The notes: generated by a model not told the origin, from the sequence alone. 64,000 nt of DNA from a virus (IMGVR_UViG_3300030109_004085:19882-83881), one strand, 5' to 3'; shown: positions 2,641 to 52,663, counted from the first letter of the stretch. A program made the numbers and translations.

Positions 2641-2972
2641 AACTCTGGTAAATCCTCTTCTAATATATCGAATATGTTTTCGATGTCTTCTTCAGTTAGC
2701 GCAAGGTCTTGTAACATTTTCTCGCCATCCTCACGCAGTTTGCGAGATTTAGTAACACGCTTTTTAGATTGAACTTTCTTGTTAATTTTGTAGTCGTCAA
2801 GAAACTTCATAAAAAGTTTGTCTTGTGATAGATAAGATTCAACGCAGTATCGAAAGAACTCGCTCTGTGTTTTAATCTCATCGTAGAACAATCTAATCTT
2901 TAAGTTCTCGTGGAGTTTTGAATCCAACGAGAAAGATAATATAGAGTGTCCTTCTGGGTACGATCTTTTCAT
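2637..2972 (-). CDS. Hypothetical protein, possible ribbon-helix-helix regulator
   Basis: ILSFSLDSKLHENLK...QSEFFRYCVESYL; ATGA-coupled to neighbours. Confidence 0.5.
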   Translation of the reverse strand: MKRSYPEGHSILSFSLDSKLHENLKIRLFYDEIKTQSEFFRYCVESYLSQDKLFMKFLDDYKINKKVQSKKRVTKSRKLREDGEKMLQDLALTEEDIENIFDILEEDLPEL

Positions 2973-3988
2973 CTCAAGATATGTGTCCCACTCTCAGTCT
3001 GTCCGCTAGAAGTCTGGCGGATAAACCGAGCTTTTGCTTGTAGCTCTGTAATGGTTCGTGCTCCGGAATATGAAAGTCCCGAACGAATGCCGCGGTCTAG
3101 TTCCATTAGTATATCTGCCACTGGACCCTTACAAGGCACTGTCGTTGCAATACCCTCTAATGACGCTGTTCTTCCACGCCACTCGACCTGAGCATCCTTT
3201 GAAGCCATTCCACGGTAAGCCTTAAACTTACCTTCTCTGGTATTGATTATATCCCCAGGAGTCTCATTAGTACCTGACAAGAGAGAACCAAGCATAACGA
3301 AGTCAGCCCCAGCTGCCAAAGCTTTGACAATATCCCCCGAGTTTCGGATTCCCCCGTCAGCAATGATGGGAACGTTCCTGTCTGATCTCGCGCAATCAAT
3401 AATTGTGTGAAGGCCCGGGACACCGTGGCCAGTCTGAACCCTAGTTGAACAAATAGAACCGCCGCCAATATTGCAACGCACACTATCGGCTCCCCAATCG
3501 ACCAAGTCATTATAACCCTCCAAGGTGGCAACATTGCCAGCCATGATATGAACAGAGTCTTTAAGGATCCCACGCAACTCTTGAAGCGCATGCTTCATTA
3601 GTATGTGGTGTCCGTGAGCTACATCAACACAAAGTATATTTGCGCCGTGCCCCACAAGAGCCACTGCTCTTTCTAAATAGTCACCAGACGTTCCTATTGC
3701 TGCGGCGACCGAACTGTCGGGATTCACAAGGTTTGCTATTGAGTGCTCTACTATGTTGACTTGCTCTTCAATAGTGTTGTATCTGTGAACAATAGCCAGC
3801 CCACCTTCGTCAGCCATTGCCACAACCATATCCTTTTCAGACACAGTGTCCATTGGACTGGCAATAATTGGCAATCTAAATTGATTGTCTGATAAGTTTG
3901 AAGTAAGTTTAACTTCGTTCCTGCTTTTAATGTCCGAATACTGCGGGACCAGTAGGACATCATTATAAGTTACTGCTTCTTGTATCAT
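2969..3988 (-). CDS. IMPDH/GMP reductase family protein lacking CBS domains
   Basis: [29 protein letters not shown] (catalytic Cys), IIADGGI, YRGMAS. Confidence 0.9.
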
Positions 3989-4720: not shown

Positions 4721-4910
4721 GACGCTTTAGGTACCACTCCGCTTTCTTTAAATCTTCAATATTATCTTGTGATTTCTTGCCGGCTCTTGAAATGTATTTG
4801 ACGACATTACCAAGATGAAAGTTTAAATCCCACGCTTCAATAACTTTAATTGCTTCGTAAGTGTTGTCCTCGCCGCCATAATGTCCTGGGTGATTTACTT
4901 TTTCAGCCAT
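4689..4910 (-). CDS. DUF3310 family protein
   Basis: VNHPGHY, F.LGNV.KY..RAGKK, EDLKKAEWYL; start reassigned to MAEKV. Confidence 0.8.
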   Translation of the reverse strand: MAEKVNHPGHYGGEDNTYEAIKVIEAWDLNFHLGNVVKYISRAGKKSQDNIEDLKKAEWYLKRHVKFVQTKNS

Positions 4911-5628
4911 TATCCCTAATCCTTCTGTAGGCTCCAACTGTCTCAGGGAATAGATCCGTAGCGATCTCCAAGCAAGCCTCAGCAACCTTTTGAATCTCCC
5001 ATTGCGCGCCTTCGTGTGTGCGAAGGTCAACGAACTTCAAGAGGTTAGATAGATTAACTGTGCCATAGTATTCGGTGTAGAGGTTCTGCGGTAGAATTCC
5101 TCTTGCCTGCTCTCGGCAAACGCCGGCTTCAATCATCTTGTTATAAAGAGCGAGACAATCCTTATGATGAACCTGCAGCGCATTGCTAACAGATGTTTTA
5201 TAAAGCTTGTTCTCGCCCGGAATGTAACAACCGATATCAGGATCGATCAACTCTTCGGCGTTTGATGCTTGTCGGTTTGACTTATGCTGTGTTCTGAAAG
5301 CCTTTGGCTCATAGAATCGGAGATCCACATCAGTATACCGCCGGGATATCTCATTATAAGACCAAGTTCGATGACGGTGATGCTGACTACGAATATATAA
5401 AGGTACACAAAGGCGGTAAGTGACAAGGTTATGCTCCAAAGTTGAGGTATGTCTATGTTTGATTAGATAGTTGATCAGCTTCTTATCTTTGTTATCCAGT
5501 TCTTCTTTCTGGACTCCAAATGAAACTCTAGCCGAGTTGACGACGGTAAGGTCAGACCCCATATGTGAAACATAATCAACCTTTCCAATACCGTCGCCGT
5601 ATAAATCAATAGACTTACTGTAACTCAT
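4903..5628 (-). CDS. thyX: Flavin-dependent thymidylate synthase
   Basis: RHRTWSYNEISRRY ThyX motif; VNSARVSF; EQARGILP. Confidence 0.95.
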   Translation of the reverse strand: MSYSKSIDLYGDGIGKVDYVSHMGSDLTVVNSARVSFGVQKEELDNKDKKLINYLIKHRHTSTLEHNLVTYRLCVPLYIRSQHHRHRTWSYNEISRRYTDVDLRFYEPKAFRTQHKSNRQASNAEELIDPDIGCYIPGENKLYKTSVSNALQVHHKDCLALYNKMIEAGVCREQARGILPQNLYTEYYGTVNLSNLLKFVDLRTHEGAQWEIQKVAEACLEIATDLFPETVGAYRRIRDNG

Positions 5629-6191
5629 TAAATGATCTCGTCAATCACACCCAACTTAAGAGCTTCTTCCGCGGACATGTACCAATCAATCTTGTTCTTA
5701 AGAATGTCGTTTAACTTCTTCTTAGAGATGTTGGTCTTTTCCAGGGTAATATCCTCTATCATCTTCTGAAGGCGCTTAGTTTCCTTTAACTTCTCCTCCA
5801 TGTCCTGAACCTTACCGATAAAACCGCTAGAGACCTGATGGTAGAGTGGAGTGGCGAGATTGTATGCAAACCTCTTGTGGCCACAGATTAGAATCATGAA
5901 ACCACAAGACATAGCTGCACCAGTTACAATAGTGTGGATTGGAGTTTCAGATCTCTCCATAACCCCGAGCAATCCAAAGCACTGATACACAGCGCCCCCA
6001 TACGAATCAATGTGTAGCTTAATTGGTGCCGCCACGTATTCTAGATCGTGAACGGCATACAACTTCTTCAAGTGAGTATCACTGGCATTAATACCGATGA
6101 TGCTCTGCGTGAGCTTATGCATTGATTCCTGATTAACTTGTTCAGGAAGATACAGATACCGATCCTTTGGCAATGGTAGTGAAGGAGGCAT
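5628..6191 (-). CDS. clpP: ClpP-like protease subunit, paralogue 2
   Basis: IDSYGG, AAMSCG, YHQ, DWYMSAEEALKLGVIDEII. Confidence 0.85.
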   Translation of the reverse strand: MPPSLPLPKDRYLYLPEQVNQESMHKLTQSIIGINASDTHLKKLYAVHDLEYVAAPIKLHIDSYGGAVYQCFGLLGVMERSETPIHTIVTGAAMSCGFMILICGHKRFAYNLATPLYHQVSSGFIGKVQDMEEKLKETKRLQKMIEDITLEKTNISKKKLNDILKNKIDWYMSAEEALKLGVIDEII

Positions 6192-6655
6192 TACTTACCC
6201 GTGCTCCCTAGCGCACCCTCACCGCGGTTAGAAATGGTAATGGGATGCCAATCATAAATATCTGGATCGTCAGAAGCAACAAACCGAGCGTGGACCACTG
6301 GCACAACGACAGCCTGGGCAATCTTGTCTCCGGGTTCTACAATCTGGAAGTGACTTCCAATATTGTGAAGGTTTACGAAGACCTCACCATCGTAGCCGGA
6401 ATCCACCACGCAAGCTCCAACTAGAAGCTGACGCTTCGCTGCCATACTGGATCGGTTCTTAATCTCCATCATATAGCCGTGCGGGATCGCAAAACGTAGC
6501 CCGGTAGGCAGTAACTTGCTTTCTCCCGGCTCGATGCGTAGGGCACGGACTGCTTTGTCCTCGGGGTTAAATCGCAAGTCTAAACCTGCATCTGACGGGT
6601 TAGACCTCGTCGGGGGTTCCACATTATCGTGAACCATATGGTACTGCAAAATCAT
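6191..6655 (-). CDS. dut: Trimeric dUTPase
   Basis: DAGLDL, RSS, VDSGYDGE, KIAQ, RGEGALGSTG. Confidence 0.95.
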   Translation of the reverse strand: MILQYHMVHDNVEPPTRSNPSDAGLDLRFNPEDKAVRALRIEPGESKLLPTGLRFAIPHGYMMEIKNRSSMAAKRQLLVGACVVDSGYDGEVFVNLHNIGSHFQIVEPGDKIAQAVVVPVVHARFVASDDPDIYDWHPITISNRGEGALGSTGK

Positions 6656-6657
6656 TT

Positions 6658-7674
6658 CTAAATCCTTTCTGGTGATTCTGAAAAGACAACTCTAACAGTT
6701 GCCTTGGTGTTGAGGTAACGCTTGATATATTGTTTCCAAGATGTCTCCGTTCCCAACTTAAGCATAATAGCATCATTATCGGAAGAACGCAAGTTCCAAG
6801 TGCGCGCGGAACGCAGAATATCTACTTTATTAATGATTACATCTGTGACACCATTAATATCAACTGCTTTCTTTAGATTCCGAATATTAAGCCAATTGCA
6901 CTGTCTCGGGCGTCCGGTGGTTGCACCGAACTCTTGACCGAGTTGTTGAAGAAGATTAAATACTCTTCCTTCTCCATGGAACTCCTTGGCACCAACATAA
7001 GTGTCGTATGCCTTAGCCACTCCGTATACACGGCGAACAGCCTGCGGCGGGATGCCGTTTAGGAGCGCCCCAGCGGACGTACAGTGGCTTGAAGTAACAT
7101 AAGGGTAGTCTCCCCAGTCAATGTCCAACCCAAAGCCTTGAGCGCCCTCACAGAGGATGATACTGGAACAATCAAATTCCTCATCGGAATCGTACAGTTC
7201 TGTATACAAATCAATTAAGTATGGAGTACCGGCGAGTGCCTCGGAAGCAAGTGTCCCTCTACGATCATACTTATCCCGATAAGCGGGCCCGTTCCCTTGT
7301 TTGGTGGTGCCGAGCGTTGTGTCTTTACCGTCCTCTTCTAAATGAGCATCAGTAATGATGTGAGCGTTGTTTGCAATATAAATCAAACCTTCGGTTTTAA
7401 TTCCGCCATCGTGAAGCATCTGCAGTTCTCTCTGGAACTGATCGATATTCACAACACATCCATTACCGATAATGGACTTTACTCCAAAGAACACCCCGGC
7501 AGGGATATGGTGCGTTACAAACTTAACGCCTTCGTGATAAATGGTATGACCAGCATTGCAGCCGCCGTTAAAGCGAATACAATGAGTGTAGTCCCCATTC
7601 TTCAAAAGGTGATGTGTTACTTTTCCTTTGCCCTCATCACCATAAGACAAACCTACTACGATATCAGCTAACAT
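6658..7674 (-). CDS. purA: Adenylosuccinate synthetase (short form)
   Basis: GDEGKGK, NAGHT, EGAQG, YPYVTSS, EFGATTGRPR. Confidence 0.95.
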   Translation of the reverse strand: MLADIVVGLSYGDEGKGKVTHHLLKNGDYTHCIRFNGGCNAGHTIYHEGVKFVTHHIPAGVFFGVKSIIGNGCVVNIDQFQRELQMLHDGGIKTEGLIYIANNAHIITDAHLEEDGKDTTLGTTKQGNGPAYRDKYDRRGTLASEALAGTPYLIDLYTELYDSDEEFDCSSIILCEGAQGFGLDIDWGDYPYVTSSHCTSAGALLNGIPPQAVRRVYGVAKAYDTYVGAKEFHGEGRVFNLLQQLGQEFGATTGRPRQCNWLNIRNLKKAVDINGVTDVIINKVDILRSARTWNLRSSDNDAIMLKLGTETSWKQYIKRYLNTKATVRVVFSESPERI

Positions 7675-10600: not shown

Positions 10601-11118
10601 TCCAGAAGCTTGTAATCCACACGAGGATAACGATAGAAGTTCTCTTCCTTGTAGGACTCAGAGATCAACTTGAATAGATTGTTCAATCCTGTCTGACTCT
10701 GAGCCAGAAGGACCAAATGACGGCGACGATTGATAACAGACTTCACAGCCTTCTTAGAGGCTTCTTCGTCCTCCACGGTCGCACCAGAGGTGTCCCCCGC
10801 CTTGGCCAGCGTCTTAGCTAGTTTAGCGTCTGCCTTGATGCGATCATACTCCTTTTGCCATTCCTCAATAGAAGGTAAGAAATAAGCTTCAACACCAAAG
10901 ATAGGCTTGAAGTCCTTGCCTTCTGCCTTCATCTTCTTCCAATGAAGAAACTGGTGTGAGAACCCATTCATGTTCCCGTGGTCTGTGAGTGCGAGAGCTT
11001 CGCCTCCATTCTCATAGCAGAAATCCATATGCTCATCGGGGTATCCGATAGCATCAAAAATGGAACCCGCCACAGAGTGAGCGTGAAGTCCAACAAAAGG
11101 TATCTTTTTATCCGTCAT
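7678..11118 (-). CDS. dnaE: DNA polymerase III alpha subunit
   Basis: PHP domain (HAHS, LTDHG), GRGSAAGSLVAY, PDIDYD, KFDLLGL, YGFNKSHA. Confidence 0.95.
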   Translation of the reverse strand: MTDKKIPFVGLHAHSVAGSIFDAIGYPDEHMDFCYENGGEALALTDHGNMNGFSHQFLHWKKMKAEGKDFKPIFGVEAYFLPSIEEWQKEYDRIKADAKLAKTLAKAGDTSGATVEDEEASKKAVKSVINRRRHLVLLAQSQTGLNNLFKLISESYKEENFYRYPRVDYKLLDKYSEGVIASSACLGGPYAGNYWANREEGSEAVMEAMRETSRRFVEIFGDRWYGELQWNNIPEQHELNQYIIKVCKEFDITLISTADSHYPNTEAWKDRELYKRLGWLGKGTPAWAEDNTELPEGVEEIGYELYPKNGNQMWDAYKYYSKVGGHEYDDELVMNSITETHNIAFNRVEDFVPDTTVKLPDFVVPAGFTATSALVNYSLEGLRQRDLHENKEYTDRLKMELDVIDDRGFSKYFLTMKAISDKANEVQLTGPGRGSAAGSLVAYVLGITQIDPIKYGLLFERFLRKDATDYPDIDYDVAEPMELKELLMDEWGKNSVVPISNWNTLQLKSLIKDISKFYGVPFIEVNKVTSQMIFEATPAAKAKHGIKAGVYNPTWQEVMELSPSLRGFLVKHPHIKTHVEALVGQVRSCSRHAGGVLIADDLNEHMPIISSGGVRQSPWAEGQNLRHLEPLGFIKFDLLGLSTLRMIEGAVRHILVRHHNIPEPTFKDVQAFYNKHLHPDVIDFDDQAVYKNVFQKGNFAGIFQFTEGRAQEFCSNVKPKSLVDISAITSIYRPGPLSANVHEQYIQAKENADEIDYMNHHIKDVTEETYGFLIFQEQIALLAHKLGKDLSLDEGNMLRKVLTKKGTGKGARVKNQLKQKFINGCVEKGIRQREAEDMWERFEYFSGYGFNKSHAISYSAISFQCAWLWNYYPVEWMASFLDKEPEKRKEKAINIAKQNGFFIEKADVNRSSFVWEIDPDDDRKLIQPLAGLKGLGDAAIQQIVDNRPFANIEEFLFHDDIVYSKLNKKALDCLVRSGAMNSLMDDRFTGRKHYWSAVAVDRVYNRKKFNENIDKYKDEGDFTSAEEIENLTTITGIFPMSLVVTPEVQQKLDEYYIPAISDYDPELGLVWFIPREIIRKKTKNGKPYWIVEVIDSNSALTKFRCWGIVEGKDRIHLNRPYMGKLDYDPAWGFSTRSIKRNLRLLG

Positions 11119-11974
11119 TAATTTTTCCTCTTCTGTACATTATCTTTTTAGATGGTCGCTTCATGCGCTTGCCGAGCGGCGACCCTAGTAAATTAGCATA
11201 CCCAGCCCAGGTTGTCAAGTCAAAAAACTCTTCAATCTCTTGATCGTTGCTAGTGGGCCCTCCACCGAACACATCTTCAAGATTATACTTTAGGGACACC
11301 AATCGTTCCTCGGGGGGTAACTTCTCTGTTGGGATGGCCTCTCCATCGGTTGACTTCCAAACCGAAGCATTTGTGGTTATTGTGTGTTTTGCTCTGCGCC
11401 ACTCTTCTGGTTCCATAACAAATGAGATAGGATATCCGTCCCTTACAGTCTTGCCTTTGTGCGAAAAGTAGAATGTTTTCTTTTTTTGCACCTTGGCCCG
11501 ATGTTTAAGTAGTTCTTTTGGGTCCAGCATTCCCAAAGGAAAGGAAACGTAATAAGCAGCCGGTGTTGTCCAGCGCGAGAACATGCGCATAACCCAAAAA
11601 CATACATTTGCGCCATAAATGGTGGACCAAGCGTAGTTGTCGACCCTGTCTCTATGTTTCGGGTGAATAGGAACATAATAAATGGGAACTTCCAAATGAT
11701 TGGGACTGCCCCAGTTTTTGAACGCACCTTGCTCCACAGAACGCATATCTGTCGCGTATTCACCAATGCGATGGCGGATAAGAGGGGCAATGTCGTCGTT
11801 TGCAACAATCCAAATAGAATTGCACCCAACGTGGATGCATTCAAAGATAGCCGATTCCAATGCGGTGTAGTTTGGAGCAACAGGTATAAGAGAAGAGTCC
11901 CATTCCATACCAAACTCGGAGGTCATTCCTGCGACTGGAATAATGCCCGGTAGGTTTTCTTTACTACGGCTCAT
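11108..11974 (-). CDS. Divergent sugar-phosphate nucleotidyltransferase-fold protein
   Basis: N-terminal GIIPVAG...LIPV pattern; the usual GxGTR and K residues are absent. Confidence 0.45.
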   Translation of the reverse strand: MSRSKENLPGIIPVAGMTSEFGMEWDSSLIPVAPNYTALESAIFECIHVGCNSIWIVANDDIAPLIRHRIGEYATDMRSVEQGAFKNWGSPNHLEVPIYYVPIHPKHRDRVDNYAWSTIYGANVCFWVMRMFSRWTTPAAYYVSFPLGMLDPKELLKHRAKVQKKKTFYFSHKGKTVRDGYPISFVMEPEEWRRAKHTITTNASVWKSTDGEAIPTEKLPPEERLVSLKYNLEDVFGGGPTSNDQEIEEFFDLTTWAGYANLLGSPLGKRMKRPSKKIMYRRGKINDG

Positions 11975-12695
11975 GCAGGACTATTCTATCATCCAAATCT
12001 TCTGTTGTCTCGAAATAAAAGTTTCTTTTGCTTATGTGACGGTCGCTATGACTTAACTTTAAGTATTCTTTGTTGTTTCGCTTGAGCTTCATTTGCTTTA
12101 TTTTTCTTTCCAAAAGCAAGCGCACAATGGTGTCGGAATAATCAAAGTTTTTGATGTCTTGGGCGTCAATGATACTTGTTGCTAAAAAGTCCTTGAAATC
12201 TCCGGTTGAATTCCTATCAACTCGGTTGGTTCTTATGGTTCTGAACTCTTTAACGAACGAATCGTGGGGCTTGACGATAATATCGTGCCCTAGCTTGGAA
12301 CCTACTGTAATATCAAAGTAATCTTTAACAATGTAATCGTTAATGGTCTGATCCACGCCATCAAAATAGCAGTTTTCAAGGTCAAAAATATGAAGGAACT
12401 TAAACTCGACTAGAATCTTGGTGTTTCCCTTTGTAATAATCTTTAATTTGTCGTCTTCCATTCCGATAGTTTGAATATCAAACGGAACAGGAAGTTTGGA
12501 TTTCATTCCAAGTTCAAATATGCCGTTATACCAGTTGCTTTTTACATCTTCATAACGAAAGAAATGAACAAAAGGTCTTTGCTCATCATTGACGATTAGG
12601 TGGTAGTTCTTTTTGTTCGCGAATGTAATCGCTTCTTCCCGCCAGCCAATCACAACGTTGGGAAGTTTGATTTGTATAGGTGAAAGCCCAGTCAT
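11964..12695 (-). CDS. Hypothetical protein (probably leaderless mRNA)
   Basis: 243-aa ORF; -10 box ends 6 nt before the ATG. Confidence 0.7.
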   Translation of the reverse strand: MTGLSPIQIKLPNVVIGWREEAITFANKKNYHLIVNDEQRPFVHFFRYEDVKSNWYNGIFELGMKSKLPVPFDIQTIGMEDDKLKIITKGNTKILVEFKFLHIFDLENCYFDGVDQTINDYIVKDYFDITVGSKLGHDIIVKPHDSFVKEFRTIRTNRVDRNSTGDFKDFLATSIIDAQDIKNFDYSDTIVRLLLERKIKQMKLKRNNKEYLKLSHSDRHISKRNFYFETTEDLDDRIVLHEP

Positions 12696-17736: not shown

Positions 17737-17765
17737 ATCTTACTCTTCTCTCAGTGCTTTGTCAA
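17737..17765 (-). promoter_or_regulatory. Sigma70-type promoter for the helicase
   Basis: TTGACA-17 nt-TAAGAT, 6 nt before ATG 17730. Confidence 0.65.
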
Positions 17766-18708
17766 TACAAATTTTGTTCATAGTGCTGTGCAGATCCTCC
17801 CAGTTAAAGACACCAAAGCCATCCTGATTCATCATACGAAGAATCTCGGTTTTGTTGTAATCGTGCTCAAAGTTGTTTAGTGCGTAGTGTACCTTTTCTT
17901 GACTCTGCAACGAGATGGCTGGAGCATACAGTTGCATAAGTTTATAGTTACTTATAACTATGTCTTTGTGCTCTAAAATGTTCGTGAAAAACTTTGCTTT
18001 TGAGTCGATATTCTCGCAAAAATCGAAAACCTCGTGTAAAGTCACATCTTTATCTTCTCTCAGAAAATTAAGATTTTTTGCGATGGACTTAAGACCAGCA
18101 CGAGGAACACCCACAAGATTGTCGGATGCATCGCCAGCGATGGCCCGGGCAAGAGCAAAGTTACGAGGGTGGATATTGAAATCATCAACCACATTTAGCT
18201 TATTATGTACAATCTTCTGAGTGGGACGAAGTAATACGGTTTCGTCGTCACATAGCTGAATGAAGTCCTTATCATTGGACACAATAACTTTCTGCCACCC
18301 ATCATATTGCGAGAGGCGACTGACATAAGAGATAATGTCGTCAGCCTCAATCTCGTCAAAGCGGAACTGAATAACAGGTAATTCATTTAGATACTCGATA
18401 AGTCGTACCTGCTGCCATACCATGTTCTCACGCTGTTGTTCGGGCGTGAGATTATTGGGTCGATTGACCCGAATGGGCTTGCGACCCTCTTTATAATTCT
18501 TGTTTTGTTGTCGACGCTTACGTGAGCCTCCCGGCCCATCCCAGACAATTACAATACTGTCTGGGTTAATATCCCGGCAAAGCTTCTGTAGAATGCCTAG
18601 AAAACCCTTAAGACCACCAATTGGCTGTCCGTGGATCGAAATACTTGGATTTACAATGAAAGCCCTGAAGTAAGCATTCAGAGCATCCACAATCATTACT
18701 CTTTTCAT
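17740..18708 (-). CDS. 5'-3' exonuclease / flap endonuclease (T4 RNase H or PolI N-terminal-like)
   Basis: IVDALN, YKEGR, EADDII, SNDKDF, GDASDNLVGV. Confidence 0.9.
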   Translation of the reverse strand: MKRVMIVDALNAYFRAFIVNPSISIHGQPIGGLKGFLGILQKLCRDINPDSIVIVWDGPGGSRKRRQQNKNYKEGRKPIRVNRPNNLTPEQQRENMVWQQVRLIEYLNELPVIQFRFDEIEADDIISYVSRLSQYDGWQKVIVSNDKDFIQLCDDETVLLRPTQKIVHNKLNVVDDFNIHPRNFALARAIAGDASDNLVGVPRAGLKSIAKNLNFLREDKDVTLHEVFDFCENIDSKAKFFTNILEHKDIVISNYKLMQLYAPAISLQSQEKVHYALNNFEHDYNKTEILRMMNQDGFGVFNWEDLHSTMNKICIDKALREE

Positions 18709-20067: not shown

Positions 20068-20241
20068 TCACTCTGCGCTATCGTCGTCGTCTACAGCAGC
20101 CGAATCATCATCATCGGTGGCAGAGTCGTCGTCGTCGTCGGCGTTAGCAAGCGGACAGCCACTTAGGACCACCATTGCAAAGCCCATAATCAAGCTGAGA
20201 AACGCTGTTAGCGCAATTCTATTATTTCGTACGATCATCAT
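20068..20241 (-). CDS. 57-aa lipoprotein with DDDDSA repeats (not in ORF track)
   Basis: AAAGGA SD; signal peptide with LSGC lipobox, then DDDDDSATDDDDSAAVDDDDSAE. Confidence 0.7.
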   Translation of the reverse strand: MMIVRNNRIALTAFLSLIMGFAMVVLSGCPLANADDDDDSATDDDDSAAVDDDDSAE

Positions 20242-21210: not shown

Positions 21211-21987
21211 TTACAGAGAACCCAACTCTGCGAATGCGGCATCGACAGAGTTAGTCTCACTGTCGCTGTTCTTATTGCCGTACTTCGTGGTCTCACTGCT
21301 AATCGCCTCTGGATCCTCGACCTGCGAGTTAATAAAATTATCAAGCATCGTTTGGACATCAGAAGTCGACTTGCGCTCAAATAGTCCCCCGAATTCGGGA
21401 ATACCATCAAGAAGCTCAGCGCACTTATCTGGAGTTAAATCCTCACAGAGAGCGGATGAACGTCGTCGTGGGACCAACTTAGTCTGGGGGAACGACGCTC
21501 CTGGGGGCTTACCGTAAGTAAGAGTCAGATCAGTGCCTGCCTCCGTATCGGTAATATCACCGTACTCAGGGTTGAGCACGAGAGAAAGAAGGTTTTCGTA
21601 AGCCATCTTGCCATAACCCCAGATACGAACTCCGAGATTTTCCTCGCCGCGGACCATCACCGGGGAGAAGAAACGCTGACGGACGAAGAGAGACTTCGCA
21701 GTCTTCTTGGAATGTTCGTCGTTGTTGTTTACACCCTCACGCCATAGCTGAGAAGCAAAATCGCACACAGGACAGTCATCACCGAAGTTACGCTTCGGAC
21801 AAAGGAAGCCGCCCTTTTCTACATTGTAATGGAAATGCATTTCCTTGAAGGGGTCTCCATCAGCAGTCGGAACAATACGAATGTCCTGATCACCTTCTGA
21901 AGGCCGCCAGAAAACGGAATCTCCACCTTTTCCCTCACCTCGCAAGGCTGAGAGCTTTTCTCGCATTTTGTCTAGATTAATACCCAT
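21211..21987 (-). CDS. Single-stranded DNA-binding protein, gp32-like
   Basis: FWRP, IRIVP, CPK...CPVC Zn site, IWGYGK, YGDITD...G.DL, acidic tail. Confidence 0.85.
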   Translation of the reverse strand: MGINLDKMREKLSALRGEGKGGDSVFWRPSEGDQDIRIVPTADGDPFKEMHFHYNVEKGGFLCPKRNFGDDCPVCDFASQLWREGVNNNDEHSKKTAKSLFVRQRFFSPVMVRGEENLGVRIWGYGKMAYENLLSLVLNPEYGDITDTEAGTDLTLTYGKPPGASFPQTKLVPRRRSSALCEDLTPDKCAELLDGIPEFGGLFERKSTSDVQTMLDNFINSQVEDPEAISSETTKYGNKNSDSETNSVDAAFAELGSL

Positions 21988-22021: not shown

Positions 22022-22888
22022 TCAGCTAATATCCTGATCGTCTAAAAGTTTGTTAATATATTGTACCACAGAGGAATACCGAATGCAATAACAATATTTC
22101 TGCTCGTAACTCGTTCTGAACACACCATACGATACATTCTTCCCCGTGTCAAGCCGAGACTTGACAAAGTTGTTGATTTTTCTGAACAGAGTGCCGTCAT
22201 TCTTCAGGTCGTCCTCTCCAATACCATAGTAGTATACCACGTCCTTCGTGTTTGTCAAGGGATAAAACCACTTTTCCTTATACTGAGTGTAGTCATCGCC
22301 CTCCAGTGTTACTGCGCCTATGGTGCAGATACGCGATAATTCAGACGGAGTGATAAAATTACCAATTACAGGTTCTGAATGTCTAAACACATTAGTCATA
22401 TGAATAATATTTACGATTGCTTGGTTCAGAGTGTCATAATAACCAATAATCGACATATCACCAATGCTTCGCTCAATGTAAGCGTTATTAACCATAATAA
22501 TTTGCTCCAACATACCCGAACGAGCATATTCCTGCAACACAGAGGATACAATTTTCTCTTGCTTCTTCTGAACCTCGGACATAATCGAGAGGTCGCCCTC
22601 AATATACAAAACAGTCAGTCTGTTCTTTTGAAGTTGCTCCAACAGTCGTAGTGAGCCGCCAGAAATCTTACCTGCGCCAGCAATAACAACCAATACATCC
22701 TCATCTTTAAACTTTAGCTTCCTCTTAAGATCCGGGAATGAACTATCGTACTCTTCGTGGTTCTTTTTAGCTTTAATTGTGATATCAGCGTCTGGGTTGG
22801 CATCGATACCATAAGTTTGGTATTGCGGAAACTTTGAGAAAGCCTTCGCTATGTTGCAACCAGCCTTGCCAAGGCCAACCACGATCAT
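22022..22888 (-). CDS. Divergent tubulin/FtsZ-superfamily protein
   Basis: VVGLGKAGCNIA loop, IDAN, AGAGKISGG in place of GGGTG(S/T)G, IIMVNN, YDTLNQAI; start MIVVG via ATGA overlap. Confidence 0.65.
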   Translation of the reverse strand: MIVVGLGKAGCNIAKAFSKFPQYQTYGIDANPDADITIKAKKNHEEYDSSFPDLKRKLKFKDEDVLVVIAGAGKISGGSLRLLEQLQKNRLTVLYIEGDLSIMSEVQKKQEKIVSSVLQEYARSGMLEQIIMVNNAYIERSIGDMSIIGYYDTLNQAIVNIIHMTNVFRHSEPVIGNFITPSELSRICTIGAVTLEGDDYTQYKEKWFYPLTNTKDVVYYYGIGEDDLKNDGTLFRKINNFVKSRLDTGKNVSYGVFRTSYEQKYCYCIRYSSVVQYINKLLDDQDIS

Positions 22889-23199
22889 TCCTGAACCCAC
22901 TCCAGAAAATATCCCATATCAAAACCACCGCGCTCAATTCGCTTGACAGTAGTAGCCGTCATAATCTGAGAATCTCGGATGCCTTCGCGCTCGCAAATAA
23001 AATGAAGAATTTCCATGATATCGGCTGCTTCTTCGGCACAAGGGTTCTCGATAAATTCCGTCACTTCCTCTTGAAGCTTCTTGAGAGCCGCGGACGTAAG
23101 AGCTTCACCTTCAAGAATTGTGGTTTGGTGAACTTTGCCCGCTTCTTCAATAATCTCTGGAATTCGATCTCGGACAAGCTTGTGATGTAGTGTTTTCAT
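22885..23199 (-). CDS. MazG-like nucleoside triphosphate pyrophosphohydrolase
   Basis: KLVRDRIPEII, KLQEEVTEF, EEAADIMEIL, ERGGF. Confidence 0.85.
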   Translation of the reverse strand: MKTLHHKLVRDRIPEIIEEAGKVHQTTILEGEALTSAALKKLQEEVTEFIENPCAEEAADIMEILHFICEREGIRDSQIMTATTVKRIERGGFDMGYFLEWVQE

Positions 23200-23423
23200 C
23201 GCTGGGCCTCTTCCAACTGAAACTCTTCTTCCTGGTCAACCAAATATTCAAAAATATCTGCCACCGTAAGTTCGGTATAATCGCACCCAAATTTCTCAGC
23301 GCACTCTTCAAATATCTCAATAAGTTGAAGCCTCATAAATCCGGCGACACCATCGACTTTTCGTACGCCATTAACATAATGACTGTGTCTTGGAGGTCTG
23401 ATCTCTCTTACGTTGTCTTTCAT
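23196..23423 (-). CDS. Hypothetical protein
   Basis: 75-aa ORF, ATGA-coupled on both sides. Confidence 0.6.
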   Translation of the reverse strand: MKDNVREIRPPRHSHYVNGVRKVDGVAGFMRLQLIEIFEECAEKFGCDYTELTVADIFEYLVDQEEEFQLEEAQR

Positions 23424-24616: not shown

Positions 24617-25891
24617 CTAGTAACTGGACTGAATCGCAACAGCGGTTTCAGCCACTGTGTCTACTATATCAGATATTTCTGTCATGTCAAGGGAAGAATT
24701 CAGTTGACCATAATTTTTGGGGTAGATAAAGTTTTTGTAAGTTTCATCAACATACTTAACAATTTTCGCCATGGCCGTTTCTAGGGATGTTTGTGTTTTG
24801 AATATTTCGTAAGCTCTTCTCTTAGTTTTCTTAACAGATGGTCCCTCATAGTTTACCTCTGCATTTCTCAGATCAATGTAAAGATCAATTAGTTCCTTCG
24901 TTGTTAACGTTTGAGAACCTAATTGATCTCTTTGTTTTGTTACTAACTTATCCTTACCGCATGCTTCTTCGTAAAAAGGCTTTCGGTCAATAAACATTTG
25001 ATATGCCCTTTGAATAGAATATTCTAATAAGCTTAAATCAGTTTCACTAGCATCAGAATAAAACGTATTAAAGAAATTTTGTTCTGTAATATCTTCTCCT
25101 TGATTTGTTAGGTAATAATCAATGTAATTTAAAGAAGCATCTGTGAACAAGTCATATGTTAATATCCAAGGCACATACTTGTCAACCAGAAAGCCAAACT
25201 TTTTTGCGGCGCGCGCATAAAACTTAAAATTAGGGTCGTTAATAAACTGATCGTATTTGATTGCATCATTACCGGCATCTTGCTGGGCGATTGCGATCTT
25301 TAAACCGCTGCCAAAAGTTGAGGCGAAAGGAGACAAAACAAAGCTGGTCATGGTTATGGGCATACTTTTAACCATACTTAAAAGATATTTGACATATATA
25401 TGCTTAAAATCTATAAAGTTTCTAATTGGGGATTCGTAAGAAGGAACATAATTGTTGATAAAAGCCTCTATTATCTTGTTAGTGTGTGTGATGTGGGAAG
25501 AAGGCCAATCGATGTAACTAATAACAGCCCTTATATTATACAAAGATGAATTTCCGCCTCTATCAATACAATTTGTCAAATAAGCTGTTTTCATATGCTC
25601 AACAAAATCAGAAAATGCTTTGTTAACAAAGTTTAAACAAAACATGTTTGGCTGCACGCCGTACTCAATTTGAACTATGCTAGACTGCTTGGGTATCACG
25701 ACTGTCTGCTCTTGATTAACTCTACCGTATAAGTTCTTATCATACCAACTATCAAGAGGCTTAACAATATCGTCAGGATAGATAACTTCTTTGTATAATG
25801 AACGTTGAAAAAACTTAGCTCTGGCAGATTGAGAGTTTCTACCTGACGGGTTAGCCATCTCTTCCTCGGTATAATCGTATGTTGTAGTCAT
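24617..25891 (-). CDS. Hypothetical protein (end of baseplate operon)
   Basis: 424-aa ORF. Confidence 0.7.
   Translation of the reverse strand: MTTTYDYTEEEMANPSGRNSQSARAKFFQRSLYKEVIYPDDIVKPLDSWYDKNLYGRVNQEQTVVIPKQSSIVQIEYGVQPNMFCLNFVNKAFSDFVEHMKTAYLTNCIDRGGNSSLYNIRAVISYIDWPSSHITHTNKIIEAFINNYVPSYESPIRNFIDFKHIYVKYLLSMVKSMPITMTSFVLSPFASTFGSGLKIAIAQQDAGNDAIKYDQFINDPNFKFYARAAKKFGFLVDKYVPWILTYDLFTDASLNYIDYYLTNQGEDITEQNFFNTFYSDASETDLSLLEYSIQRAYQMFIDRKPFYEEACGKDKLVTKQRDQLGSQTLTTKELIDLYIDLRNAEVNYEGPSVKKTKRRAYEIFKTQTSLETAMAKIVKYVDETYKNFIYPKNYGQLNSSLDMTEISDIVDTVAETAVAIQSSY
24663..24690 (-). promoter_or_regulatory. Sigma70 promoter opening the replication module
   Basis: TTGACA-16 nt-TATAGT with TGn, inside the 3' end of the last structural-module gene. 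Confidence 0.6.
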
Positions 25892-25892
25892 A

Positions 25893-28800
25893 TTAATTTC
25901 CCGAGGTCTTGGGGTTCAATACTGTTCGCCCATCATAACGAATTAGTTGTGTAACAGAATTTCCAGCACCCGAAAAGTCGATTCCTTCTTGAAGCGCGTC
26001 AATCGTTACGTTAAACCCGGCAGAAGATATATCGTGTGAAACTTTAGTCACCATATAATAGCCTCCTATGCCCAGTAATCGAGCTAAGTTTGGCAAGCTT
26101 CCTTTTTGCTGCATGCTGCCTGCTCCGATCGCAATGGGATTCACATAAATATATTGTCCATTTTTATGTAAATTGTTACCAATCATTTGAATATTCGCGT
26201 TGTAAAGCTCTCTCAGCTGCAGCGCCGACAGCGCACTCTTTCTTTGGAGGCGTCCTTCACGATAATATGGGATATCGGTTCTATTAAACGATATCTTTTT
26301 GGCAATTCCGCATGCTGCCCCCAGGTAATAATGATAAATCCCTGTATTCAAGTCATCATCATAGTTTCCAGTCATTGGTCTGGAGTCAACAGAATAGAGA
26401 ACAAATGTTGGTATTGTCGGACTTTGGTTTTGAGGCAGAGCAATACAGTCTTTCTTATCGGCTGATTTTTTGGAGGACGCCAATTCTTCTACAGTTGTAA
26501 CTTTGCCGGTAAATGTCTTATCGAAATTAAATATTGAAGTATCAAATCTTAAATTAAAGTTAAGATCTTCAAAACAAGAGGCATTAAAAGCTTTTCCAAT
26601 TAATGAGCTACATACTGTTTTAATAAATCTTAAAACATTATAGTTGTCTACCTGAGGTTTCACAATATTATTGATAAACCACTCTTGGAAGACTTCCAAA
26701 GAAATTGGCATGCTCGCTATATTGGTGGTAAACTTCATTCCCACAAGTCCACGAAATCGCATTGGGTCTATTTGCGACATTTGTCGCAATACTTCAACAT
26801 CTTTGTTGTCCGGACACTGAATCTTGACTGATTCGATCTGGTAAGCCAGGAGCGGATCCAACAACTCAACCTGAGACAGAATTAGTTGAAAACTTCCTCG
26901 GTCACCTTCTTTGTCGACAATAATATCAATATGTTCCAGAACAGCATCTAGCAGATCGCCCAAATAAAAAAATGGAATCTTCAAGTCTGTGTTTGTTTTG
27001 CTCGCGGCTGTCCTCAAATTAAAGTTTGAGACCGCACCTTTAGCCTTGGCTTCTTCAGACAAGACCTCGTCGCTTTCTTCAGATTTACTAATTTCGCTAA
27101 TTTGTTTTGCAGCTGAATCATATATTGCTGCTGCTGCGCCTGAATCAGACTGCGCTTCCCAACCAACTTGATATTCGTTAGACGCCACTCTGGTTGCAGC
27201 TTTCTTTGCTCTTTCCTCAGGTGTCATGTTTTTGAAAAGAATTCTTTCAGAGGCTGGTACCACATAAGTGTATATTTTTTGATCGTTGTACAACTTGTTC
27301 AAGAACCTTTTGTACTTAATCGCTTTGCTTTGCTTTGTGAGCTTAACTTTTTCCTCAAGAAGATCTTCTTTATCTCTTCTCAAATCATTTATCGCATCAT
27401 CTTCTAGTGCTAGCGTTCGATTTTCTGGATCGTACGCATTGGTTCTTTCACTTATTCTTTTATTTTTTTCTTTAAGCTTTTCATTAATCTGTTTTAGTTG
27501 CCGGGACAATTCCGTGCCCCCAGAAAATATGTTTGCTGCTGGGGATCTTGCCAGTCCAGACAATCTTGCTTGGTAGTTTACACTCAGATCAACAGAGCCA
27601 TTTTCATTAAAGTTTAGTTCGTGGGTGGTCAGGGTTAAGTATAGCCCAACTCTTGTCTCGTTGATCGCAGCTTCAAGATTTATCCCGTAGTCCGGTCCCT
27701 TATCTCTAGAGGATTGCAAATCATTTATAATGTTTGAGAAATTTGCTGGCGTTGACCACCCTACGCACGCTTTGATTTCAAAATCTCTTGGATCATACTC
27801 CATCATCGTAGCTTCAAAACATTCTGTCGAGATAGGGGCTGCCGCGGCCTGCTCGTTGAGAGCAGTTCCCCCCCCAGATTTGTTGGATCGTTGCCTTGCA
27901 GACTTGATGATAAGATCTAGATACCCGGGCTTCGCCTGTCCTGCAGCTAGCCCCTGGTTTAACGAGAACAGATCTTGAATTGTTTGGAAATGTAAGTCCA
28001 ATCGGGCGCTTATGTTATTATCAACCTCTGCTGGGTTTACACCATCTAAATTCCAAGAAAACGATTTAATGCCGGCGCCTGGGAATCGACCATAATCATT
28101 ATTCATAATAGCCTGAATGTCCGACGGGTCTATGAAGTTTGGAAATGGTATTTCCTGTTGAAGTGTAGGAATTAACTTATTTTCACCTTCATATTCGACG
28201 CGATATATTTTAATATGTGGCGTTAGTAGAGCGTACACCTCCGGACATAAGTTTAAAAGAGCGTTTACTTCGTCAGTTTTGTCTGCATGATTAATATACG
28301 AAATCAAGTTGCCCGGGAGTGAATTCTTTCCTTGTGTACTGTTATATATCGTGCTGATATTCTCATATTTTTCCACACCACCCGCAATAACGCTATCTTT
28401 ATACTCAGTTAAAACTCTAATGTTTTCCAACAAATAGCACTGATGATCGACTGGCTTCAGGGCTTCTTTCTTCGGTGTTCTAACCACTTTTTTAGTGAAG
28501 GGTGTTCTGACGTCACCCTCATCAGCGCCTAGTATCCCTTCGGCCTGCTTAATATTTTTGTCAACTTCTCCAACAAAATCTAATAAAACTGACTTAAAGA
28601 CTGACCAAGTTACGCTTGGATATAAGGTGGCTATAGAGGTTATTACATCTTCATTCCAACCGTATATAGCTTCGAATATAGGTCCGCGCGCTTGTCGGAC
28701 TTCATCACCGCCATTATAAAATAAAATGTTTCCCGCAAAAGGCTGCCCGGGTCTTTCGTCGTACAATCCGCCGGTAAGACCTCTAAAATCATAACCTTCA

Positions 28801-29732
28801 CTTTCAAGCTCTTCTCTTGTTTTGACTTCAATTGTGCCGGCATTAGACATATATGATATTTCAACATCTGCAGGACCGAAAGTTCCCCCTGCAGGGATAC
28901 CAACAAGCTCAGTGTTTTCTGTTAGTTTTGTAACCTCCCTAGTGGAAGGGGGTATACCGTCTCGAACGGACCCTGGGTTTCTTACAGTCTTCGTCTCGTA
29001 AACTGGCGCGCCGTCTGGTACCATGTACGGGAAGTAGATGGGATTAAGGACGCCCGCAAAACGATCACCTAGTTCAGCCCTATCATCTGGCAGCGAAGTT
29101 GCGCCAAGTTTTACAGGTAAGTTTTCTGTATAATCTTTTGTGAACCACCCTGTTTGATACACAAACAGAAAGAACAAATAAATGCCTTCGCTTTGTAAAT
29201 TTAGTGTCATTCCAGCAGTTGGCCAGTCTAACACTGGCTTGTCTACCGCGCCACCGAGATTGGCAGCTTCAATATTCGCTACATCCTCCCTTGGATTAAG
29301 TCTAGGATCTCGGAAGACTTCATTTGCGTTTTGTAGAATTGTGTACAAAACGGACTTTCCAAGTTCAGTTGTAAAAAGTTTCCTTATCGACTTGTAGGTG
29401 TTAGAAGCAACCGTATTTGTGTGCAGAGTAAATTGGTTTTTTACGAAATTATCATAGGCTTCTTTGGTGTTGTCCACCCGTTTGTATTCCGTAACCTCCT
29501 CACCGGTCTCTTCGTCTGTATAAGTTTCTTTTAAGAACGCAAAATCAGGATCATTCTTATAAGCCTCCAGAAGTGTATTGAGTTTATCAGCCCACACAGC
29601 TGGGTCTACACCCTCGGGGGCAGCCCCACCAGAAGACAAGTATTCATAGACATATGATTGACATATATTTTCTATAATTTTGTTGTTAATCAAAAAATCA
29701 ACTGCTTGTTTAATGTTATTGGGCTGTGTCAT
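25893..29732 (-). CDS. Large putative baseplate hub protein
   Basis: Follows the LysM/gp53-like gene; C-terminal GGYYMVTKVSHDIS...F is typical of hub (gp27/VgrG-like) ends. Confidence 0.55.
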   Translation of the reverse strand: MTQPNNIKQAVDFLINNKIIENICQSYVYEYLSSGGAAPEGVDPAVWADKLNTLLEAYKNDPDFAFLKETYTDEETGEEVTEYKRVDNTKEAYDNFVKNQFTLHTNTVASNTYKSIRKLFTTELGKSVLYTILQNANEVFRDPRLNPREDVANIEAANLGGAVDKPVLDWPTAGMTLNLQSEGIYLFFLFVYQTGWFTKDYTENLPVKLGATSLPDDRAELGDRFAGVLNPIYFPYMVPDGAPVYETKTVRNPGSVRDGIPPSTREVTKLTENTELVGIPAGGTFGPADVEISYMSNAGTIEVKTREELESEGYDFRGLTGGLYDERPGQPFAGNILFYNGGDEVRQARGPIFEAIYGWNEDVITSIATLYPSVTWSVFKSVLLDFVGEVDKNIKQAEGILGADEGDVRTPFTKKVVRTPKKEALKPVDHQCYLLENIRVLTEYKDSVIAGGVEKYENISTIYNSTQGKNSLPGNLISYINHADKTDEVNALLNLCPEVYALLTPHIKIYRVEYEGENKLIPTLQQEIPFPNFIDPSDIQAIMNNDYGRFPGAGIKSFSWNLDGVNPAEVDNNISARLDLHFQTIQDLFSLNQGLAAGQAKPGYLDLIIKSARQRSNKSGGGTALNEQAAAAPISTECFEATMMEYDPRDFEIKACVGWSTPANFSNIINDLQSSRDKGPDYGINLEAAINETRVGLYLTLTTHELNFNENGSVDLSVNYQARLSGLARSPAANIFSGGTELSRQLKQINEKLKEKNKRISERTNAYDPENRTLALEDDAINDLRRDKEDLLEEKVKLTKQSKAIKYKRFLNKLYNDQKIYTYVVPASERILFKNMTPEERAKKAATRVASNEYQVGWEAQSDSGAAAAIYDSAAKQISEISKSEESDEVLSEEAKAKGAVSNFNLRTAASKTNTDLKIPFFYLGDLLDAVLEHIDIIVDKEGDRGSFQLILSQVELLDPLLAYQIESVKIQCPDNKDVEVLRQMSQIDPMRFRGLVGMKFTTNIASMPISLEVFQEWFINNIVKPQVDNYNVLRFIKTVCSSLIGKAFNASCFEDLNFNLRFDTSIFNFDKTFTGKVTTVEELASSKKSADKKDCIALPQNQSPTIPTFVLYSVDSRPMTGNYDDDLNTGIYHYYLGAACGIAKKISFNRTDIPYYREGRLQRKSALSALQLRELYNANIQMIGNNLHKNGQYIYVNPIAIGAGSMQQKGSLPNLARLLGIGGYYMVTKVSHDISSAGFNVTIDALQEGIDFSGAGNSVTQLIRYDGRTVLNPKTSGN

Positions 29733-52063: not shown

Positions 52064-52663
52064 TTAGTCCCCAGTAATCTCATTCATAAGATTAATAATC
52101 TTGTTATTTTTCTGAACTTGTTCGTTCATTAGCTTGCCTTCTGACAAAGCCATGAAAGCATTTGGGGTTGAAGGCTCGGACACAATGTCAAAACAAATTA
52201 ACTGGAAGTCATCTTCCACAATTGTCTTGCCCATTCTTTCGCTTACGGATCCCATGCCTCGGGAGGAGATGCCGATCTTGACACCCGAATCAACCAGAGC
52301 GCGTAGAATCTGTCCTGACGGCGTGTCAAGAACTTTGCACTTACCCATTACTGATGATCCATCCATCCATACCTCTGTAATCATATGTGACACATTGACA
52401 AGGTTAATAATAGAAGACTCTGGATGGTCAAGCTCGCCTAGGGCGCGGCGATCATCAACAACATCTTTGTATCTTTTTACTTCTCGCTGCAAGACCGGGA
52501 GCGGATACACGCGACCGTTGCCATTCTGTACCTCTGCCTCCTGCAGTTTGCCGGTCAACATCATACCACCATCACGGACAAAGGACTTCTCGGATTCCGT
52601 CAGTAAGTCCTGACAGACGCCGCCTTCGCATAGTTCATAAAATTCTCGTAGTAATTGGGCCAT
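52064..52663 (-). CDS. Prohead protease (gp21-like)
   Basis: NGNGRVYP, GELDHP, GISSRGMGS, FDIVSEPSTPNA. Confidence 0.93.
   Translation of the reverse strand: MAQLLREFYELCEGGVCQDLLTESEKSFVRDGGMMLTGKLQEAEVQNGNGRVYPLPVLQREVKRYKDVVDDRRALGELDHPESSIINLVNVSHMITEVWMDGSSVMGKCKVLDTPSGQILRALVDSGVKIGISSRGMGSVSERMGKTIVEDDFQLICFDIVSEPSTPNAFMALSEGKLMNEQVQKNNKIINLMNEITGD

Follow-up and report, generated by a model that had tools for sequence, protein, structure and literature searches.

tubL, a gene fixed between the polymerase and single-strand DNA-binding protein genes of uncultured marine T4-like phages, encodes what is, by its predicted structure, a genuine member of the tubulin/FtsZ superfamily, very divergent, unusually compact and the founder of a phage-specific family. 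The gene lies in a 64,000-nucleotide stretch of viral DNA (IMGVR_UViG_3300030109_004085:19882-83881; hereafter, the window), taken from an 83,881-base IMG/VR record with a CheckV completeness estimate of 46%.

Predicted fold of TubL

An AlphaFold2 model of TubL was built from a family alignment (A1) of 123 sequences, comprising the query and 122 of 150 listed representatives; the 28 left out were fragments or matched too little of the query's length. The model has a mean pLDDT of 95.7 and a pTM of 0.92, and it shows a complete two-domain fold, with a Rossmann-like nucleotide-binding domain, the core helix H7 and a C-terminal activation-type domain. A divergent tubulin/FtsZ-like protein had been proposed at this position from the DNA alone, and the structural comparisons agree with that sequence-only reading. 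When the model was compared with the PDB using Foldseek, FtsZ, CetZ, TubZ and tubulin were returned with E values of about 1e-12 and TM scores of 0.63-0.71, and VIA-align of these matches gave Z scores of 21-25 over TubL residues 1-281. A Foldseek-independent scan of 48,161 representative PDB chains spoke against the possibility, named as refuting the sequence-only reading, that the predicted fold is not that of a tubulin GTPase: ranks 1-17 were all members of the tubulin superfamily, with Z scores of 15.5-24.8. These included CetZ (24.8 and 23.7), TubZ (22.9 and 21.6), FtsZ (20.8), tubulins, BtubA and Asgard tubulins (18.7-20.5), the TubZ of phage c-st (19.2) and PhuZ (15.5-15.8). Rank 18, at Z 8.9, fell to short-chain dehydrogenases that matched the N-terminal half only. 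Among the predicted viral structures of BFVD, the best match was a phage FtsZ (TMq 0.77), with PhuZ-type proteins weaker. On these models we hold membership of the superfamily by fold to be very nearly certain, and TubL to be among the shortest proteins with a complete tubulin/FtsZ fold. A predicted complex of two TubL copies with GTP and Mg (score 0.00, mark 0.42, run without controls) is uninformative on self-assembly.

Sequence libraries could be taken to point elsewhere, namely to a protein of the TrkA-N/RCK kind, with a Rossmann-type domain for NAD(P) or nucleotide, that is no relative of tubulin. The TubL query had no tubulin match in Pfam, PHROGs, NCBIfam or the PDB sequences (phmmer), PF00091 did not match it, and only 8 of the 123 family members touched PF00091 weakly (E <= 0.1; best 4.2e-4). 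The only Pfam match of the query was TrkA_N (PF02254; E 3.6e-4), a domain that matches 13 of the 123 members, and the best match of the family profile among PDB sequences was KtrA (E 8e-5). A GxGxxG motif and, where strand 2 ends, an acidic residue suit such a protein as well. However, the TrkA_N match covers residues 2-34 only and scores 21.3 bits against a gathering cut-off of 23.8; the KtrA match was to a tandem chain, and with a single KtrA domain its E value is about 0.15. Rossmann structures reach at best the Z of 8.9 over the N-terminal half given above, whereas the tubulin family matches over the full length at 15.5-24.8. The TrkA-N/RCK identity is contradicted by the unbiased fold scan and the VIA-align results; we rejected it and regard it as scarcely credible.

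Residue-level comparison with FtsZ

The family alignment was compared by hhalign with an FtsZ profile of five sequences (A3; E. coli FtsZ and four from MAG genomes). The two aligned with a probability of 66% and an E value of 5.4e-5 over 159 columns, and T1, T4, T6 and H7 fell in register. The register was unchanged, though statistically weaker, when a single FtsZ sequence was used. The T1 loop of FtsZ has the motif GGGGxN, which is also visible in A3. In TubL, residues 5-13 read GLGKAGCNI, which is the N-terminal GxGxAGxNI loop of the sequence-only reading. Its glycines G5 (106/123), G7 (123/123) and G10 (104/123) align with FtsZ G17, G19 and G22, those at FtsZ G20 and G21 are replaced, and the T1 asparagine is kept in 46 of the 123 members. 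At the end of strand 2, in T2, D29 is present in 90 of 123; the hhalign comparison assigned it no FtsZ counterpart. The T3 glycines (GAG) are absent, and P44-E45 (E45 in 113/123) corresponds to FtsZ P74-E75 at the start of the following helix. In T4 the tubulin signature is [SAG]-G-G-T-G-[SA]-G, and GGGTGTG is invariant in the five FtsZ sequences. The altered version that had been read from the DNA, GAGKISGG, occupies residues 71-78, and the family columns bear the change out: the family form, G-[ASG]-G-x-[IV]-S-G, departs from the canonical signature, lacks its Thr and has a 2-residue deletion. G71 (115/123) aligns with FtsZ G103 and, beyond a 2-residue gap, G73..G77 with G107..G111; G73, S76 and G77 occur in 72, 89 and 78 of the 123 sequences. 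The family has P98-D99 in T5, the query itself having G98. The T6-equivalent asparagine is followed by the aligned H7 residues Y151, N155 (108/123) and Q156, which stand opposite FtsZ F182, N186 and D187, position 156 being E or D in 71 of 123 members. The conserved pocket columns are G5, G7, G10, D29, E45, G71, G73, S76, G77, P98, D99, N135, Y150 and N155. As judged from these columns, the pocket is remodelled yet conserved within the family.

The T7 synergy loop, NxDxx[DE], completes the GTPase site of the neighbouring subunit, and to our knowledge T7/H8 is needed by all characterised cytomotive members of the superfamily. FtsZ N207 and D209 are invariant in A3. No NxDxxD/E follows helix H7 in TubL, as the sequence-only reading had observed, and none is conserved in the family. 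Residues 170-186, flanked by the conserved blocks HMxNVF and R-I-x-T-x-G, are the most variable of their region; the AlphaFold2 model has no helix H8 there, and the hhalign alignment does not reach the segment. Of the 123 members, 37 have acidic residues at both 180 and 183, and 89 have one at either of the two.

No motif in the family is more conserved than QEYARSG (Q119 121/123, R123 121/123, S124 118/123; longer form V-L-Q-E-Y-A-R-S-G), which is family-specific and sits where TubL has five residues more than FtsZ. The fold's topology would place both this block and the conserved end of H7 on the side that faces away from the nucleotide. Near the C-terminus Q276 is near-invariant (118/123). 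TubL ends about 10 residues past its last strand. In most members the chain stops at about residue 277-280, so few residues from Q276 that the family has no long C-terminal tail of the sort seen in FtsZ, TubZ or PhuZ.

Family size, distribution and selection

A word-indexed search recovered 516 relatives of TubL (E <= 0.001) among 1,123 candidates at 90% clustering. An exhaustive HMMER search recovered 559 cluster representatives at 50% identity, 379 of them at E <= 1e-10 and 172 at E <= 1e-30. Nearly all relatives are 265-300 amino acids long, and their source names are absent or read 'hypothetical protein'. In the ESM Atlas the family's clusters are 100% viral, and IMG/VR has relatives at no fewer than 596 loci, from marine samples. 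DNA near-identical to that of the phage occurs in marine or seawater metagenome runs from many studies: of the 20 runs listed, 17 contain 0.34-0.98 of the sampled words (2 of the 17 are possibly the source sample). Pairwise dN/dS values between tubL and related loci were 0.020, 0.064 and 0.085 in the pairs with estimable dS; in five more distant pairs dS was saturated. The homologues at both levels of clustering and these ratios establish that the ORF is real rather than a chance frame. By the same ratios, tubL is under strong purifying selection and is being maintained, not decaying. The term 'degenerate' in the sequence-only reading is thus misleading for a large family that is under such selection and conserves its pocket residues.

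A tblastn search of 50,697 phage records with TubL gave no match. The nearest cultured phages by major capsid protein are Flavobacterium phage immuto (41.5% identity), Microcystis phage Mel-JY01 and Rhodothermus phage RM378. Searched with the family profile, these three and the uncultured LR756508, also near by capsid, gave nothing real, so that these cultured relatives are without tubL; a 12-bit match in immuto was rejected, as it falls inside an annotated phosphoesterase. In a species-representative genome collection, a degenerate VLQEYARSG pattern had 21 matches, two of which are real tubL loci. These lie on contigs of a Legionellales MAG (L097) and a Flavobacteriales MAG (L101), and both carry the PolA-tubL-gp32(-UvsX) synteny. 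We treat both as phage contigs that reflect mis-binning or are weak host leads at most. One oligo-dT RNA run contained two 151-nt contigs spanning the tubL 5' end and the junction with the upstream MazG-like ORF, and one metatranscriptome contained a 151-nt gp32 contig; since contigs in RNA libraries do not prove transcription, these are only a faint hint of it, and a lack of RNA contigs elsewhere carries no meaning. A literature search of incomplete coverage, passages of PMC7824862, PMC2875224, PMC9871819 and PMC12153180 included, found the family described nowhere.

Genomic context

The features of the locus and of TubL are collected in the table. A GTG at 22900, four codons upstream of the ATG, is a possible alternative start, and the homologues start at the ATG rather than at this GTG. 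The ATGA overlap between the tubL start and the stop of the MazG-like ORF probably couples translation of the two, so that they would be co-translated. On the other side, a 34-nt gap separates the tubL stop from the gp32 start and contains gp32's own AAGGAG. Pfam places an A-family polymerase upstream and a gp32 SSB downstream, as had been described from the DNA alone; two small ORFs, of 104 (MazG-like) and 75 amino acids, intervene between polymerase and tubL. The A-family polymerase has a TTG start and no exonuclease domain was seen in it. 

Table. Features of tubL, its product and other genes in the window (residue numbers refer to TubL).
Feature	Position	Strand	Basis or remark
tubL, compact tubulin/FtsZ-fold protein (predicted), 288 aa	22022..22888	minus	translation; stop codon 22022-22024
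T1-equivalent glycine loop, residues 5-12 (GLGKAGCN)	22853..22876	minus	family pattern G-L-G-x-A-G-C
T4-equivalent loop, residues 70-78 (AGAGKISGG)	22655..22681	minus	two residues shorter than GGGTGTG
QEYARSG block, residues 119-125, end of helix H5	22514..22534	minus	most conserved family motif
N135, T6-equivalent asparagine	22484..22486	minus	N in 106/123; aligned to FtsZ N165
Core helix H7, residues 150-169	22382..22441	minus	helix in model
T7/H8-equivalent segment, residues 170-186	22331..22381	minus	variable; no conserved NxDxxD
C-terminal activation-type domain, residues 187-277	22058..22330	minus	structural alignments run to residue 281
ATGA overlap, tubL start/MazG-like ORF stop	22885..22888	minus	sequence read
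gp32-type single-strand DNA-binding protein	21211..21987	minus	PF08804, E 6.5e-13; downstream of tubL
MazG-like ORF, 104 aa	22885..23199	minus	Pfam dATP/dGTP pyrophosphohydrolase, weak, E 0.077; directly upstream of tubL
75-aa ORF	23196-23423		between polymerase and MazG-like ORF
A-family DNA polymerase, 395 aa	23420..24607	minus	PF00476, E 2.6e-14
424-aa ORF	24617-25891	minus	no Pfam/PHROG match
1279-aa ORF	25893-29732	minus	no Pfam/PHROG match
57-aa ORF	20068-20241	minus	hydrophobic N-terminus, lipobox-like LSGC
5'-3' exonuclease, separate gene	17740-18708		
243-aa ORF	11964-12695	minus	no Pfam/PHROG match
288-aa ORF	11108-11974	minus	no Pfam/PHROG match
DnaE-type Pol III alpha, 1146 aa	7678-11118	minus	PHP, NTPase, finger and HhH domains
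Nucleotide-metabolism cluster genes	2969-3988, 4903-5628, 6191-6655, 6658-7674	minus	
ClpP-like paralogues (two) and T4-type prohead protease, in order	521-1165, 5628-6191, 52064-52663	minus	

The arrangement around tubL is strict. In 77 of 80 kept loci gp32 directly follows tubL, the other three ending at or inside the gene. Upstream, 67 of the 80 have an A-family polymerase, and the remainder are cut off. A MazG-like ORF intervenes in 46 loci and is absent from 34, in which tubL abuts the polymerase gene. UvsX, exonuclease, helicase and RNR follow downstream in the same order wherever the locus reaches them. When 80 loci were chosen by gp32 instead (70-92% identity), tubL was directly upstream in 68 of the 68 with enough sequence; this set and the one chosen by tubL share contigs, and both are confined to the closer relatives. 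The position between polymerase and gp32 is kept down to 38% identity, and five large related records (102-184 kb; CheckV 56-100%) carry exactly one tubL copy each. tubL is a single-copy core gene of the replication/recombination block of an uncultured marine T4-like myophage lineage with genomes of about 150-185 kb, the order of the block being PolA - [MazG-like] - tubL - gp32 - ... - UvsX - 5'-3' exonuclease - DnaB. In three related loci (L035, L036 and L042) about 1 kb is inserted between tubL and gp32. The insert of L036 (6780-7751 of that locus) encodes a 323-aa protein with a DPPY motif, which we take to be a DNA N6/N4 methyltransferase; the insertion parallels the mobile segG that T4 has between genes 59 and 32.

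The large genes of the 84-kb record are all on one strand and include T4-type capsid, portal, sheath, baseplate and terminase genes. The record also encodes DnaE, ribonucleotide reductase, a DnaB-type helicase, a 5'-3' exonuclease, a RecA/UvsX recombinase and nucleotide-metabolism genes. The description of the locus as a T4-like operon accordingly holds for gp32, UvsX and the structural genes but not for the polymerases, which are of the A-family and DnaE types. DnaE, a short A-family polymerase and a separate exonuclease make an unusual replication set beside T4-type virion genes. Directly downstream of DnaE, the 288-aa and 243-aa ORFs of the table are candidates for unrecognised polymerase accessory subunits. 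The 424-aa and 1279-aa ORFs, between the polymerase and the baseplate genes, keep their synteny in 53 and 47 of the 80 related loci, respectively. The 57-aa ORF, which has three poly-Asp runs (DDDDD/DDDD/DDDD), is possibly a small acidic lipoprotein. The nucleotide-metabolism cluster contains an IMPDH/GMP-reductase family protein, thymidylate synthase, dUTPase and adenylosuccinate synthetase, and two ClpP-like 'head maturation protease' paralogues lie among these genes, in addition to the T4-type prohead protease of the structural block.

Possible functions of TubL

We propose, at a probability of roughly 0.45 for the explanation as a whole, that TubL is a scaffold for the organisation of replicating phage DNA, one that self-assembles in a nucleotide-dependent way and hydrolyses slowly or not at all. 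TubL would bind a nucleotide, most likely a guanine nucleotide, in the remodelled pocket formed by T1 (GxGxAG), T4 (G-x-G-x-[IV]-S-G) and the retained T6 Asn and H7 aromatic, Asn and acidic residues; binding is suggested by the alignment of conserved residues with the nucleotide contacts of FtsZ (N165, F182, N186 and D187). Canonical GTP hydrolysis, in which the T7 loop of one subunit completes the active site of the next, would be lacking, because the T7/H8 segment is variable and has no conserved catalytic acids. Produced along with the polymerase and SSB, the scaffold would organise or position the replicating DNA as TubZ and PhuZ do, but with other dynamics.

The strict position in a replisome operon fits a non-cytoskeletal role in replication equally well. 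The main rival explanation, which we judge unlikely, is that TubL is a non-filamentous accessory of the replisome or of recombination, a nucleotide-regulated adaptor whose partner would be gp32, the polymerase or the DnaB-type helicase. It might, for instance, fill the slot of the T4 helicase loader gp59, since gene 59 of T4 lies directly upstream of gene 32 with only segG between them. The fixed placement of tubL between polymerase and gp32, its putative translational coupling to the upstream ORF, the loss of a conserved T7 and the lineage-specific nature of its strongest motif, QEYARSG, are all consistent with this, as is the finding of no gp59 domain (PF08993/PF08994) in 5 records (completeness 90% or more in two) by searches that had no phage positive control. 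Nevertheless, gene position is weak evidence, and the whole nucleotide pocket and both domains are conserved, as they would be in a polymerising member too. The gp59 fold is mainly helical and unrelated to tubulin, and the domain searches showed no sequence relation between gp59 and TubL; gp59 is a positional analogue only, occupying the same slot upstream of gene 32 in a replication/recombination block. We know of no replisome-accessory or DNA-replication role described for any tubulin-fold protein. A stronger version, to which we give a decidedly low chance, has TubL as a tubulin-fold protein that departed from the cytoskeleton to become a T7-less, nucleotide-switched component of the replisome or recombination machinery in a gp59-type slot, perhaps loading the DnaB-type helicase onto gp32-coated DNA.

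TubL might instead act on the host, its defective bottom face capping or poisoning Z-ring protofilaments and so blocking division during infection. Small phage inhibitors of FtsZ are known, lambda Kil among them (PMC3961180), and TubL has the FtsZ fold with no conserved T7. We consider such antagonism of host FtsZ improbable: CetZ and TubZ are at least as close to TubL as FtsZ is, the gene sits among replication genes, and nothing beyond the common fold favours it. Mimicry of an FtsZ interface is not evident, because identity is 9-16% and the profiles match over the nucleotide-binding core only.

Implications and comparison with known systems

The characterised phage tubulins, PhuZ and TubZ, come from jumbo nucleus-forming phages and plasmid-like prophages. 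TubL would extend the superfamily to abundant uncultured marine T4-like myophages, as a fixed core replication gene, in a family that has gone unrecognised in marine viromes because no library searched names it. It would also offer a natural test of which tubulin parts serve assembly and which serve hydrolysis, since it appears to keep the nucleotide pocket but not the T7 loop within a complete, short fold. Should TubL polymerise, phages other than jumbo phages would also organise replication with a cytoskeleton; should it not, the tubulin fold has a new functional use. A replisome role, if true, would be a DNA-replication function new to the tubulin/FtsZ superfamily.

Within the superfamily TubL has 9-17% identity and, as far as its sequence tells, is a new branch that belongs to no named family, because it departs from the canonical signature in T4, lacks the T7 motif and stays below the threshold of Pfam. 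Its highest structural similarity is to the archaeal CetZ proteins (PDB 3zid, 4b45), with which it has the whole two-domain fold in common (rmsd 3.0 and 259 residues aligned for the match at Z 24.8; residues 1-281 of TubL). The two share 14-15% identity, and CetZ chains have 334-342 residues; in contrast to CetZ, TubL comes from a phage, its T1 and T4 loops are modified and it has no conserved T7. FtsZ (Z 20.8-22.7; 9-16% identity) is the only family with a sequence-profile link to TubL, which differs from it in having no GGGTGTG, no GAG in T3, no NxDxxD in T7 and no disordered linker and C-terminal peptide.

TubZ, which serves DNA segregation in plasmids and phages, matches TubL with Z scores of 22.9 (4ei7), 23.2 (2xka) and 19.2 (c-st phage, 4xcq). 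Like TubZ, TubL is carried by a mobile element and is DNA-associated; unlike TubZ, it has no long C-terminal tail and no conserved T7, and it belongs to a phage with T4-like structural genes in which no sign of a plasmid-prophage context was seen. No TubR-like adaptor adjoining tubL was seen, nor any HTH family (Pfam, PHROGs and 80 loci), and the upstream ORF looks, from its weak Pfam match, MazG-like rather than like such an adaptor. PhuZ (3rb8, 3zbq, 9pm9) is, like TubL, a phage-encoded protein with the tubulin fold, yet its Z of 15.5-15.8 is the lowest among the superfamily members that matched, and hhalign of the TubL family with phiKZ PhuZ aligned 36 residues at a probability of 4.5%. Six-frame searches with PF00091 found no second tubulin in the 84-kb record or the five related large records, and neither the 84-kb record nor four of the five showed any similarity to phiKZ chimallin, a weak test when made by sequence. 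Unlike the nucleus-forming jumbo phages in which PhuZ occurs, the phages that carry tubL have genomes of about 150-185 kb and structural genes of the T4 type.
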